NCBI RefSeq assembly: GCF_902713615.1
Contig: NW_024055909.1
Location: 124,001-188,000 of the forward strand
Direction: 5' to 3'
Length of the DNA stretch: 64,000 nucleotides
Source of the DNA: Scyliorhinus canicula
Taxonomy: Eukaryota
Shown: positions 3,304-18,224 of the stretch, piece after piece
Layout of the letters: each line of letters opens with the position of its first letter
How positions within the stretch are numbered: the first letter of the stretch is position 1
The notes under the pieces: generated by a model
What the model saw: the letters and a program-made list of their open reading frames with translations, nothing else
Told to the model about the DNA's origin: nothing
The model's database searches: none
Made by a program: the position numbers and the translations under genes

Positions 3304-5236
3304 TGAATTTTAAACTCACCACTATTCTTAGAATTCCCCCTATACCAAAAAAAGTTCGATATTCTAAATGGTGAACAGGGATTCTCACTCCCTGACTCCG
3401 ATGCAGTCTTCGGTGGGTACTATTTAGGTCAAACTATATTTTCAAGTTATCCCCCAGTATAACCCATACCTTCACCGAAGAAATTTACCTACTTACCCCT
3501 TAGTAGCATCGATGTCCTGGGTCCTACGTTGTTAATGAAGTAAAGTAGGCTAATAACCACTTTTTCAGGTTAAGTTATTTTATTATTATATATTTTCTTT
3601 TAAAAGCTGCAAACTCTTTCTTTACAGAAAGGAAAAAAGATCTTGCTTGGGATCCTTCTTGTTGGTTGAAGGGACCTTCAGGCCCTGGCCTTGACAATCG
3701 ATCTTCTTAAAATCTTGTCTTCTTGAGTTGTATTCGCTGGTGAACTCGGTTGCTGTGTCCTATCCTTCCCATGCACCGAGCTGTGAGAGCTGGCTCTGGT
3801 GGCTGTCCCCTTTCTTCAGATTTATATTCTCTTTCGAAGAGTCACCAAGTTTTAACGACTTTATTGTAAATGAGCTTGTTTCATTTTGATTGTCAAAAAG
3901 TATCCTTGATGCAAACATCCAAATACAACCAACTATTCACTTTGCGCACAACGTCACCTTTCAGATCTGATTTTAAAACGCCCCGGTTTCAATAGGTGTT
4001 ACCTCCACCTCCTGCTTTTGAATCGCTTAATTTTCCAATTGTCCCCAGCTCATAACTTTGCCTTTGATTTTGACTTCAAATTGTGTCTCCCGTAGACAGG
4101 TCGTCTCCAATTTTCTTTTAATTGACTTGATGTCCATAGAATTTTACACTTTAGAATTTACACCAAATTCGACTGAGCATCTTCCGTCCTTTCCAGCTGT
4201 TTACTAAGAGTTTATTTCAATTAAGGTGTGAGACTTTGCTTTTAGCTGTATGCTAAAATTTAACTGAGAGACTTGCCTGTTTTAAACATTCGTCAATTGA
4301 ATCTCTCATCCATGCCTTTCCAGATACTTCCTGAGATAGTTACATTCCATGAAGGTGTGAGCCATTGTTTTAGCTTACCACATGAAACCTGTGTGTTTGA
4401 GAATCTGCATTTTACAATCCTGCTCTTTGCAGCTGCTATTAACCTTTTGTGGGATCTTTCCCTGTATCCTCTCAGACCAGATATTGCCAGACTTCCATGT
4501 TGGAAATGACACATTTTTCTGTATTTTCAAGAACACCCCGTCTTGCCATTTGAAACATAACTATATAATTTGGTTAATTGTCCCCCCATCCAATTGCACT
4601 AACATATATCCCCGATCTTTGTCATTTGTATGCATGCGTTGCAATTTTAAATTTTGCACCGAAATCAATTCGTAAATGTATCCATATCTCAGACCAGTGT
4701 CGATAAGAGTCTTGTTTTTCTTCCTCAAGTCCAATTACCGTGAACCATAGCCATAGCCGCTCAGGAAGGTAACACAATTGCTTTCCGTGTGTCATTGGAA
4801 TGGTAATTATGATATCATGTACCACCCACTGATCCCCTTGTTCATTAATTTAAAAGGTTCATTTGATCCTGCTTATATTCCTAACTTCCCCACATTAATG
4901 TCTAACATTGTCGTGAACCATGTATGTCTGCCAACCCCTGGTTTACATGAGAGAATATCTTTCTGACAAATTTCCTTCAGATACCTTTTGTCTGTCATCG
5001 TTTCCCTTACAACATGAAAGTGTATATTTTCCATTACAGCATTTGCAATACCACATTGAATTGTCACTTTTCCAAATAAATTCTCCCTATTGTTAAACAC
5101 ACAGTAAAAAAATTAAGTCTTATCTTAACATATTGTTCATTACCTAACCACACAAATAGACTGTGTGTTACAACTTTACATATTTTCAACTGTATTCACA
5201 ATTTAAATATCAGAAATAAGGTAAAATATCGAAACA
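3304..5236 (-). repeat. ERV-1 3' LTR (about 1.9-2.1 kb; U3 start either 5236 or 5415)
   Basis: Ends ..TTCA on the minus strand at 3304, like the 5' LTR next to the PBS; two PPT+TG candidates on the minus strand: GAAGAAGGGA|TGTTTCG (5236) and AAGGGGAGTAGG|TGTGTCG (5415). Confidence 0.75.
3579..3826 (-). promoter_or_regulatory. LTR TATA box (TATAAA 3821-3826) and polyA signal (AATAAA 3579-3584) delimiting R
   Basis: Both motifs also present in the 5' LTR (17508-17513 and 17265-17270); about 30 nt after the TATA lies GCCAGCTCTCACAG, a plausible R start. Confidence 0.65.
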
Positions 5237-5300
5237 TCCCTTCTTCGCTTTGGGACCAATAGTCATTACATACTAAATATGACATATAAACAACATCAAT
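4270..5300 (-). pseudogene. Degraded accessory ORF within/overlapping U3 of ERV-1
   Basis: Consecutive minus-strand ORF pieces 4873-5100, 4622-4825 and 4293-4514 link through isolated stops/frameshifts; the distal piece is also present in the 5' LTR (17981-18224). Confidence 0.45.
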
Positions 5301-5528
5301 ATTATTTGTACTGTTCTATTTAGTTAAATCAAGAAAACACACTAAACTACGACTATTCCCTCTATTAAAACATTCACACAGTTTAGAAATGCGGATCAAG
5401 TTCTTTAACGACACACCTACTCCCCTTATCATATATATATATGATGTGGAGATGCCGGCGTTGGACTGGGGTGAGCACAGTAAGAAGTCTTACAACACCA
5501 GGTTAAAGTCCAACAGGTTTGTTTCAAA

Positions 5529-5563
5529 CACGAGCTTTCGGAGCACGGCTCCTTCTTCAGGTG
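5529..5563 (-). ncRNA. Minimal type I hammerhead ribozyme (Penelope pLTR)
   Basis: Reverse complement of the motif at 9423-9457. Confidence 0.75.
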
Positions 5564-5708
5564 AATGGAAAGGCTTGTTCCAGAAATGTTTATATAGACA
5601 CAGTCAGAGATGCCCCGGAATGCGAGCACCTGCAGGCAATCAAATCATCAAAGATGCAGAGAGAGAGGTAACTCCAGGTTAAAGAGGTGTGAATTGTCCC
5701 AAGCCAAT

Positions 5709-16377: not shown

Positions 16378-16807
16378 TTTTCGGATTTTTAACTTCTGTT
16401 TCTGGTTGTTCCTTTCAGGTGCATTCTGAAATTAAGGATAAGTACCCTTTCTGGGCCCTATCCAAGGCTGACTAAGGCACTATCTTCCTGTTTTAGTTAA
16501 GGGTCGATTGGTTATTGGTTTCTGAAGATTCTAAGCATCCCTATTTTCCAGAAAATATCCGCACAATCTGCCTTACTCTGAGGATGATTTATTCTTTGGC
16601 CTCTTTTACCAGTAATGGATGCATGATTTTAGTGCTATCACCAAAATGTCTTGCAGACTTTTTCTCAGGGTCAGTACCTTCTGGTCTACTGATTTTTCAC
16701 ACCCAAACTGAGCTTCAGTCCCCTCGATCCACAGAATACCCTTACAAAAGCCAATCACACATGACTTTCCAAACTAAACTCGGCAGGTAAAGTTTGACTC
16801 ACACAGA

Positions 16808-16970
16808 CTAGAAACTTCTAATATTCTAGCCTTTGTGCCGGTTAGAAACTTCTAATATTCCAACCGTTTCTTGGGAACTAGAAACTTCTCATATTCTAGC
16901 ACCTACTCTGCTTAACTAGAAACTTCTAATATGCTAGCCTCGCTTTATCTAGAAACTTCTAATATTCTAG
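16808..16970 (-). repeat. Five spaced copies of a 22-nt self-complementary motif in the ERV-1 leader
   Basis: CTAGAAACTTCTAATATTCTAG (or near variants) at 16808, 16842, 16878, 16916, 16949 with unique spacers. Confidence 0.9.
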
Positions 16971-16971
16971 G

Positions 16972-16989
16972 CCTCCACGCTGGGCGCCA
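16972..16989 (-). other. Primer-binding site, tRNA-Lys1,2 type
   Basis: Minus strand TGGCGCCCAGCGTGGAGG directly after the LTR-terminal CA; canonical Lys1,2 PBS is TGGCGCCCAACGTGGGGC. Confidence 0.85.
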
Positions 16990-18224
16990 TGAATTTAAAA
17001 CTCACCATTATTCTTAGAATTCCCCCTATACCAAATAAAGGTCGATATTCTAAACGGTGAACATGAATTCTCACTCCCTGACTCCGATGCAGGCTTCGGT
17101 GGGTGCTATTTAGGTCAAACTATATTTTCAAGTTATCCCCCAGTATAACCCATACCTTCACCGAAGAATTTTACCTACTTACCCCTTAGTAGCATCGATG
17201 TCCTGGGTCCTGCGTTGTTAAGGAAGTAAAGTAGGCTAATGACCACTTTTTCAGGTTAAGTTATTTTATTATTATATTTTTTCTTTTAAAAGCTGCAAAC
17301 ACTTTTTTTACAGAAAGGAAAAAAGATCTTGCTTCGGGATCCTTCTTGTTGGTTGAAGGGACCTTCAGGCCCTGGCCTTGACAATCGATCTTCTTAAAAT
17401 CTTGTCTTCTTGAGTTGTATTCGCTGGTGAACTCGGTTGCTGTGTCCTATCCTTCCCATGCACCGAGCTGTGAGAGCTGGCTCTGGTGGCTGTCCCCTTT
17501 CTTCAGATTTATATTCTCTTTCTAAGAGTCAACAAGTTTTAACGACTTTATTGTAAATGAGCTTGTTTCATTTTGATTGTCAAAAAGTATCCTTGATGCA
17601 AACATCCAAATACAACCAACTATTCACTTTGCGCACAACGTCACCTTTCAGATCTGATTTAAAAAACGCCCCGGTTTCAATAGGTGTTACCTCCACTTCC
17701 TGCTTTTGAATCGCTTAATTTTCCAATTGCCCCCAGCTCATAACTTTGCCTTTGATTTTGACTTCAAATTGTGTCTCCCCTAGACAGGTCGTCTCCAATT
17801 TTCTTTTAATTGACTTGATGTCCATAGAATTTTACACTTTAGAATTTACACCAAATTCGACTGAGCATCTTCCATCCTTTCCAGCTGTTTACTAAGAGTT
17901 TATTTCAATTAAGGTGTGAGACTTTGCTTTTAGCTGTATGCTAAAATTTAACTGAAAGACCTGCCTGTTTTAAACATTCGTCAATTGAAACTCTCATCCA
18001 TGCCTTTCCAGATACTTCCTGAGATAGTTACATTCCATGAAGGTGTGAGACATTGTTTTAGCTTACCACATGAAACCTGTGTGTTTGATAATCTGCATTT
18101 TACAATCCTGCTCTTTGCAGCTGCTATTAACCCTTTGTGGGATCTTTCCCTGTACCCTCTCAGACCAGATATTGCCAGACTTCCATGTTGGAAATGACAC
18201 ATTTTTTCTGTATTTTCAAGAACA
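16990..18224 (-). repeat. ERV-1 5' LTR, truncated in U3 by an L1/Tx1 insertion
   Basis: Colinear with 3304-4535, with scattered substitutions; match stops at ..CAAGAACA where L1 sequence starts. Confidence 0.9.

Follow-up and report, generated by a model that had tools for sequence, protein, structure and literature searches.

How a virus of the foamy clade may turn into a retrotransposon confined to its host's cells, and how such an element makes its Pol protein, are the questions raised by an endogenous retrovirus (ERV) of the catshark Scyliorhinus canicula. The provirus lies on the minus strand of a 64,000-nt stretch of contig NW_024055909.1 (assembly GCF_902713615.1, positions 124,001 to 188,000; hereafter the window). 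A preliminary description drawn from the letters of the window had read it as a foamy-like ERV of a cartilaginous fish. The explanation that we favour, and hold to be reasonably likely, is that it is a defective, middle-aged copy of the family ERV-Spuma-Sca, which lost most of its env-like gene, spread intracellularly and would have made Pol by readthrough of a UGA codon. The window copy is dead, as follows from the frameshifts and stops that its gag and pol carry relative to open sister frames (Table 1); it is also ordinary, and the interest lies in the family.

Placement of the family in the foamy clade

The pol gene encodes protease, reverse transcriptase (RT), a degenerate tether, a second RNase H and integrase in the retroviral order, and the predicted succession of degenerate tether, second RNase H and integrase assigns the element to Retroviridae and not to Ty3/gypsy. 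Among solved structures the RT was matched best by foamy Pol (E 4e-50), followed by Ty3 (6e-28) and the best gammaretroviral RT (1e-17), and the best match of the integrase was also foamy. Of the named full-length Pol proteins, the closest belong to teleosts (31-35% identical), and two Pol fragments of Scyliorhinus torazame are 87-90% identical. RT phylogeny had been set beforehand as the test of placement. A tree of 56 RT-tether rows (LG+G4, no mixture model) united the window piece with two sisters and S. torazame, a group that nested with teleost foamy-like Pol in one clade (support 99/98); a wider clade, which also took in nine rows of foamy viruses and a protein of the elephant shark, was supported at 100/100 and stood apart from three gamma-like and 14 gypsy rows. 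The window family therefore falls with the foamy clade and not with gypsy or gamma-like elements, and a forced grouping with the gamma-like rows was rejected by the approximately unbiased (AU) test (p-AU 0.0003). A lokiretrovirus RT would be sister to those of all other retroviruses; the family appears to nest inside the foamy clade, in a tree with no named loki row, in which a coelacanth row falls where, from the accessible part of PMC7947760, loki is expected. Neither the RT clade nor the Cys-His box of gamma- and epsilon-like elements is seen in the predicted proteins.

The family has the features by which foamy-like ERVs (FLERVs) are recognized, namely the RT clade, a primer binding site (PBS) for tRNA-Lys (tRNA-Asn and tRNA-Thr also counting for the group), a GGGTG border with a 4-nt target-site duplication (in sisters) and a Gag without a Cys-His box. 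The PBS adjoins the 5' long terminal repeat (LTR) directly and matches the complement of the 3' end of host tRNA-Lys(CTT) at 18/18 bases in some sisters and at 15/18 in the window, the tRNA identity being taken from ARAGORN calls on host genes (2 of 78 matches checked). GGGTG is present at the border of polypurine tract (PPT) and LTR in the window copy, and a 4-nt duplication flanks 33 of 37 young copies. Gag has a Gly/Arg-rich tail, with no CCHC box in two open sister frames and none visible in the window pieces; its capsid region had no Pfam match, and the Atlas leads for it were all below 0.9. YNLR is the core of the foamy Gag chromatin-binding peptide according to the accessible part of PMC12125541, and by this motif the family Gag would carry the YxLR chromatin anchor of Spumaretrovirinae. 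The RT tree, the AU test and the cis features thus bear out the foamy-like ERV, the tRNA-Lys PBS and the box-less Gag of the preliminary description. Separately, one young copy was found inside a different dual-RNase-H retrovirus (L017 1068-3428 and L018 3086-4594) that sits loosely on the gamma side of the RT tree.

The family is a described one. Song et al. (2023) reported 293 elements of ERV-Spuma.0-Sca from the catshark, and the accessible text gives a model of 9220 nt with LTRs of 866/869 nt and with gag (1538-3796) and pol (3920-6865) in one frame (PMC10699275). The young sisters have the same 9.2-kb layout: their LTRs measure about 0.87 kb, pol shares the frame of gag with the same 123-nt gap from gag to Met, and pol counted from that Met has the same 981 codons (2946 nt); their PBS context, leader repeat and TGA junction are present in the available portion of the supplement to that study. 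By layout and by the junction, PBS and leader motifs, not by whole-sequence comparison, the window copy is assigned to ERV-Spuma-Sca, and the undescribed lineage once suggested for it gives way to a family-level match, with an S. torazame protein 90% identical. The published model corresponds to the young form without a Macro domain, whereas the window copy has a Macro segment, a longer LTR with a different core and an extra 190 nt after pol; the env annotated in the accessible text sits where a deletion remnant lies here. The main text of Song et al. contains none of the terms 'stop codon', 'readthrough', 'fusion' or 'deletion', and the env-like deletion, the in-frame Macro domain of Gag, the gag-TGA-pol junction and the TGA/GGA alleles treated below are unreported in the portion of it available; the terms for these features are likewise absent from the available text of Ruboyianes and Worobey. 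A literature search with most subscription papers outside its scope found no description of these features in catshark foamy elements, of a natural foamy Gag-Pol fusion, of a Macro domain in a foamy-like Gag or, in the foamy clade, of a route by env loss and readthrough; the CFEFV paper (Wang, Chen and Cui, 2023), one of those outside, may already cover Macro, env loss or junction type.

The gag-pol junction and its alleles

The gag frame closes with TGA and runs on, without a shift, into pol; between that stop and the protease DTG no ATG occurs in any of the 8 junctions displayed, three of them from old copies. TGA is present in all three old copies readable at this point. By exact pattern, 69 junctions had TGA and 89 had GGA; with any codon allowed there were 159, and the first 100 of the list all carried TGA or GGA. 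GGA copies hold gag and pol as one continuous frame of 1788 codons. TGA stands in four sequence contexts, one of which is common to 40 TGA copies and 88 of the 89 GGA copies (counted from lists). A private nonsense mutation at the border was ruled out, TGA being common to 69 copies in four contexts and to old copies. On these comparisons TGA is the ancestral state of the junction, and Pol therefore had to be made past TGA before GGA arose. Strict Spumaretrovirinae have Pol as a separate open reading frame (ORF) with a start of its own, an arrangement that is absent from the predicted frames of this family. In-frame UGA between gag and pol is known from SSSV, ZFERV and a frog ERV, in a review whose accessible part does not mention foamy or spuma viruses (PMC13517186), and prototype foamy virus is stated to tolerate an engineered in-frame Gag-Pol fusion (PMC3196705, accessible part).

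The two alleles do not sort by descent. A single clean GGA clade was ruled out on the pol tree, which requires five changes, at least three of them forced. Among 61 copies, r2 with the junction was 0.43-0.59 at five of nine informative sites no more than 175 nt away, reached 0.3-0.5 at some sites 0.65-1.4 kb away and was at most 0.2 beyond 2 kb, and all four gametes occurred in 48-61% of site pairs. This pattern is best fitted by a single origin of GGA followed by frequent recombination, for which co-packaging and template switching among copies is a likely route; gene conversion between loci may be an alternative source of the mixing. A division of labour by decay, with TGA copies keeping gag and GGA copies keeping pol, was also rejected, as the signal of a first count vanished once in-frame indels were allowed: gag was open in 28/34 TGA and 15/19 GGA copies and pol in 17/34 and 9/19 (Fisher p = 1; L107, on an older background, left out). 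Both genes were open in 22 of the 53 young copies (14 of 34 with TGA and 8 of 19 with GGA, the GGA copies not having been chosen for open frames).

A stop at one and the same RNase H codon (window about 11675), at the border of a T-run and an A-run, recurs in TGA, GGA, Macro-bearing and Macro-less copies (L037, L038, L039, L040, L096, L100, L110, L119, L125) and may point either to a site prone to mutation or to the mobilization of defective copies in trans.

The env-like gene, the Macro domain and the mode of spread

In old copies pol is followed by an env-like segment, 86% alike between two copies, the frames of which have N- and C-terminal hydrophobic spans, RxxR sites, cysteines and N-glycosylation motifs. 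The two terminal spans fit foamy Env, for which the accessible text of PMC11468914 gives a two-span topology. The Env of strict Spumaretrovirinae is also processed by furin, for which the RxxR sites would be candidates, while the old frames gave no sequence match to foamy Env. No Pfam or PDB match was obtained for the segment, the F-protein-like Env of lokiretroviruses (PF00523) included, and a structure prediction for a piece of it reached a predicted local distance difference test (pLDDT) score of 28.5; the segment is nonetheless likely to be the env gene. The window copy lacks the middle of this segment, about 2.0-2.3 kb having been lost and the ends joining at about 9928-9901. The same middle is missing from all 70 of the 70 younger copies compared, and the deletion edge of the window recurs in a young copy. 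Two old copies (L078 about 3404-3829, L048 about 4839-5282) also carry, between the env-like gene and the 3' LTR, a Cys-rich accessory frame with CxxC pairs that survives in the window only as remnants.

LTR identities order these states in time. Env-bearing copies have LTRs 87% and 90-92% alike (the 2 of 10 with usable pairs), env-less Macro copies 93.5% and 97.6%, and the Macro-less clade medians of 99.4% (31 of 33 TGA copies) and 99.8% (23 of 28 GGA copies). At 0.5e-9 substitutions per site per year, the rate quoted by Song et al., this corresponds to roughly 90-130, 25-65 and 2-6 Myr, the ages being rough and uncorrected. The oldest state is thus env-like plus Macro, the middle one, the window copy included, env-less with Macro, and the youngest env-less and Macro-less with TGA or GGA. 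An RT search returned at least 150 matches at 89-100% identity, and exact-match searches for sisters gave 287 PPT-LTR junctions and 1492 LTR starts. A family of about 290 proviruses, many with LTRs more than 99% alike, suggests recent intracellular spread, and retrotransposition within cells after env loss is in our judgement highly probable. LTR pairs only 3.6-4.4 kb apart (G000:C1:2439171-2443545 and similar) suggest in addition a shorter non-autonomous derivative of the family.

Transcripts were sought in two poly(A) RNA runs, assigned by species label and aligned to a young TGA copy. Sampling about 1% of one run yielded 23,102 reads, and sampling about 32% of the other yielded 549. The reads are strongly one-stranded in the sense direction and cover 30 of 30 bins across gag-pol; they do not tell which copies they come from or whether an LTR drove them. 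An unspliced contig covering 5.3 kb of gag-pol comes from a run presumed to be RNA. A skip of 301 nt in the leader (L025 1959-2261), the ends of which are non-canonical, was found in 940 reads of one run and in contigs of two others and is probably a strongly expressed genomic deletion variant.

The Macro segment lies in frame in sister Gags of 919 and 984 codons and is absent from the youngest clade; a pol tree of 39 copies requires a single change for its loss. Its Pfam match (PF01661) is at E 0.03 for the window copy and at 9e-4 for a sister, macrodomain structures in the PDB match from E 2.5e-4, and 27 of 30 Atlas matches are Macro (0.91); a structure prediction gave a pLDDT of 41. The motifs of the ADP-ribose pocket are kept in sister segments, and the window copy deviates at two pocket-motif positions. 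By profile match and pocket motifs the segment is a predicted Macro domain, and 91 pieces in genome G000 match it. The ratio of nonsynonymous to synonymous substitution rates against one sister, the partner in every pair, was 0.13-0.43 in four deep copies (two of them with fewer than 50 codons) and 0.30-1.02 in six near copies. Whether the domain acted on ADP-ribose in the ancestor we would put at even chances. Macro-domain ORFs are known from epsilon-like fish ERVs (Basta, 2009, as cited in the accessible part of PMC4977317). A predicted protein of the anchovy Coilia grayii (P0129) represents a foamy-like element with a Macro domain (Pfam E 2.6e-4) at the N-terminus of the gag-like region, 22% identical to the shark Macro.

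Under the explanation we favour, genomic RNA would be translated into Gag and, by occasional readthrough of UGA, into Gag-Pol; particles would form inside the cell and prime on tRNA-Lys, and the YNLR anchor would bring them to chromatin. RNAs of different copies would be co-packaged and recombine, spreading the stop-less GGA allele over backgrounds, and Macro would have served an infectious or early endogenous stage by binding or removing ADP-ribose before becoming dispensable. Several observations weigh against this explanation. Readthrough is something we infer: no hairpin or other stable structure was found directly after the stop (z 1.2 to -0.5 over 60-100 nt, -2.2 and -0.2 over 150 nt), and the junction also resembles a branch point with a splice acceptor. 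The env label comes from position and hydropathy, the Macro score lies below the Pfam cut-off (19.6 vs 22 bits), the window copy has no target-site duplication, and the RNA reads may stem from host transcripts containing copies. Copies were chosen from ranked match lists and not at random, and the RT tree is one without named loki, SnRV, ERV-L or published shark sequences.

The resemblance to a splice site bears on how Pol was made. Production of Pol from a spliced mRNA is in general unlikely, and less likely still in the specific foamy manner, in which the start codon of a 5' exon would be joined to an acceptor 27 nt after TGA, TGA being an ordinary stop and at the same time belonging to the branch point, and GGA a fusion mutant escaping splicing. 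Young copies do have TTGAC, a pyrimidine tract and CAG/G at the spacing typical of the splice consensus, the cut falling between two codons of pol. Separate expression is how foamy viruses obtain Pol (PMC3196705, accessible part), and in teleosts the predicted Pol proteins begin at a Met of their own, about 30 residues ahead of the protease motif. However, no joint at the candidate acceptor was among those listed from four runs of limited depth (14 weaker joints lie beyond the list), the acceptor AG is missing in two of the three old copies that retain TGA, and the older TGA contexts match a branch point less well; readthrough of UGA is the route that we hold to be moderately probable. The mode of spread has a rival of its own, in which env-less genomes were packaged by an env-bearing helper, an exogenous or polymorphic foamy-like virus, and reinfected. 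Many old copies retain the env-like gene without much of gag-pol, which shows past complementation in trans, and recombination among young copies requires co-packaging; yet every env-like match in G000 is degraded, being interrupted and at 73-91% identity to the probe, no young env came to light, and the young copies with both gag and pol open are as expected for action in cis, which leaves this rival improbable. Least likely is that this dual-RNase-H element belongs elsewhere than in the foamy clade (being loki-, Odin- or SnRV-like) and owes its foamy resemblance to long-branch attraction or convergence. An in-frame gag-pol stop is typical of gamma/epsilon viruses, SnRV, SSSV and ZFERV (PMC13517186, accessible part), Pol identity to any named relative outside catsharks is just 30-45%, and the composition of the RT tree leaves room for it, but the starred support for the foamy clade with gypsy outgroups, the AU test and the GGGTG junction, 4-nt duplication, YNLR and Lys PBS of the foamy-like feature list all speak against it.

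Textbooks give the separate expression of Pol as a hallmark of foamy viruses. If the favoured explanation is true, a natural gag-TGA-pol junction together with a stop-less allele would mean that the clade is not bound to this hallmark, and the stop-less allele would be the equivalent in nature of the Gag-Pol fusions made by engineering. The foamy clade as a rule has few endogenous copies; here one genome, in which the env-like gene, its loss, the loss of Macro and the switch at the junction form a dated series, would allow the step from virus to retrotransposon to be followed. Macrodomains are a device of alphaviruses and coronaviruses against poly(ADP-ribose) polymerases (PARPs), and one inside Gag would carry this anti-PARP device to a retroviral structural protein. 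A broader scenario, which we regard as doubtful, would have a foamy-clade virus go over to an orthoretrovirus-style Gag-Pol made by UGA readthrough, lose env and become a cooperative two-allele retrotransposon, TGA copies giving Gag and GGA copies Gag-Pol and the two being held together through co-packaging and recombination, with an ancestral Gag macrodomain directed against host ADP-ribosylation and shared with some teleost FLERVs.

The window locus and known relatives

Table 1. Features of the window (positions of the whole stretch)
Feature	Position	Strand	Remarks
Provirus (LTR retroelement)	3304-18224	-	LTR pair and internal region
3' LTR	3304..4535	-	1232 nt
Decayed accessory-gene region and weak PPT	4536..5442	-	GGGG/TG border at 3' LTR
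Penelope element	5443..9509	+	837-codon RT/endonuclease frame, inserted in (TA)n run
Remnant after pol	9511..10407	-	short ORF remnant, then env-like gene ends joined across deletion
pol	10408..13478	-	protease, RT (YIDD), tether, RNase H, integrase; 1 frameshift and 4 stops
In-frame TGA between gag and pol	13479..13481	-	ancestral state of the family
gag	13482..16377	-	broken; 2 frameshifts and 5 stops vs open sister frame
YNLR motif	13701..13712	-	as in foamy Gag chromatin-binding site
Macro-domain segment	15256..15926	-	670 nt, in frame within Gag in sisters
Leader tandem array	16807..16975	-	34-nt unit, palindromic core, 4.8 copies
PBS, tRNA-Lys(CTT)	16972..16989	-	15/18 bases match
5' LTR	16990..18224	-	1235 nt, TG...CA
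LINE (long interspersed nuclear element) fragment flanking 5' LTR	18225..19436	+	abuts 5' LTR
Nearest V-set gene segment with recombination signal sequence (RSS)	20681..21017	+	TCR alpha/delta-like by resemblance

Without the Penelope insert the provirus measures 10.85 kb, in agreement with the 11 kb or so first proposed; an LTR of about 2 kb, proposed at the same time, was ruled out by measured lengths of 1232-1235 nt. The LTR pair differs by 30 substitutions and 3 gaps over 1234 columns (Kimura two-parameter distance 2.5%), or about 25 Myr at the rate quoted by Song et al., so that 'not very ancient' holds in a relative sense for a copy older than most full-length sisters examined. No 4-nt target-site duplication of the window provirus was found, the flanking tetranucleotides (3300-3303 and 18225-18228) being different, and LTR dating of this copy is weaker for its absence. 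The leader array varies in copy number between sisters.

Positions 1-21383 of the window, provirus and both flanks, recur at G000:C508:168750-185727 with about 98% identity. The C508 copy has a 546-nt deletion in gag, lacks the Penelope insert and likewise has no target-site duplication. Between the two loci the 5' LTRs differ by 1.5% and the 3' LTRs by 1.5%, and 5' and 3' LTRs differ by 2.4-3.1%; because same-end LTRs differ less than 5' from 3', the insertion is older than the duplication (or haplotype split), and a recombinant origin of the two window LTRs, though it may have occurred, is not required by these distances. The window Penelope is young, its 837-codon frame open and a 1362-nt inverted part 99% identical. 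The LINE fragment, which we take to be L1/Tx1-like, has no continuation past the other end of the provirus, and the C508 copy has the same arrangement.

V-set segments with a 23-nt-spacer RSS begin about 2.5 kb past the 5' LTR; at least eight, on both strands and interspersed with 11 tRNA genes, lie at 20681-59207, a region with a large inverted duplication (about 27-33 kb vs 55-62 kb). TCR alpha chains are among their top single-domain PDB matches, mixed with antibody fragments. Motif scans of window 1-3300 and of 40 kb further along the contig found no V segment on the side of the 3' LTR. Of the placement inside a TCR V array, then, one side stands, and as far as the motif scans reach the provirus appears to lie at the edge of a V cluster.

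Among known systems, the teleost FLERVs are the sister clade in RT (Ruboyianes and Worobey, 2016; Aiewsakun and Katzourakis, 2017) and, in the parts of these sources available, have the same Lys PBS, GGGTG junction, 4-nt duplication and lack of a Cys-His box, with one anchovy element also having an N-terminal Macro domain; they differ in having env and accessory genes, lengths of up to 17 kb, separate gag and pol and low copy numbers. The mammalian foamy viruses provide the best RT and integrase structure matches and share the YNLR anchor, the Gly/Arg-rich Gag tail and the tether with RNase H. Their Pol is separate with its own start, whereas here pol lies in the gag frame, and the family further differs from them in its protease DTG, its shorter LTRs and the lack of a recognizable env, tas or bet. 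The cartilaginous fish endogenous foamy virus, CFEFV (Wang, Chen and Cui), is reported to comprise several S. torazame lineages, one of them grouping with ray-finned fish elements, which would fit the present family and its 90% identical S. torazame Pol. Env loss followed by expansion is also the history of IAP and ERV-L, and Magiorkinis in 2012 reportedly linked env loss to mega-family expansion. The gag-UGA-pol layout recurs in ZFERV and SSSV (PMC13517186) and in Candida Tca2 (PMC2194720), as far as the accessible text of these sources goes. All of these differ from the catshark family in kind, IAP, ERV-L, Tca2, ZFERV and SSSV being beta-like, class III, copia-type or epsilon-related.

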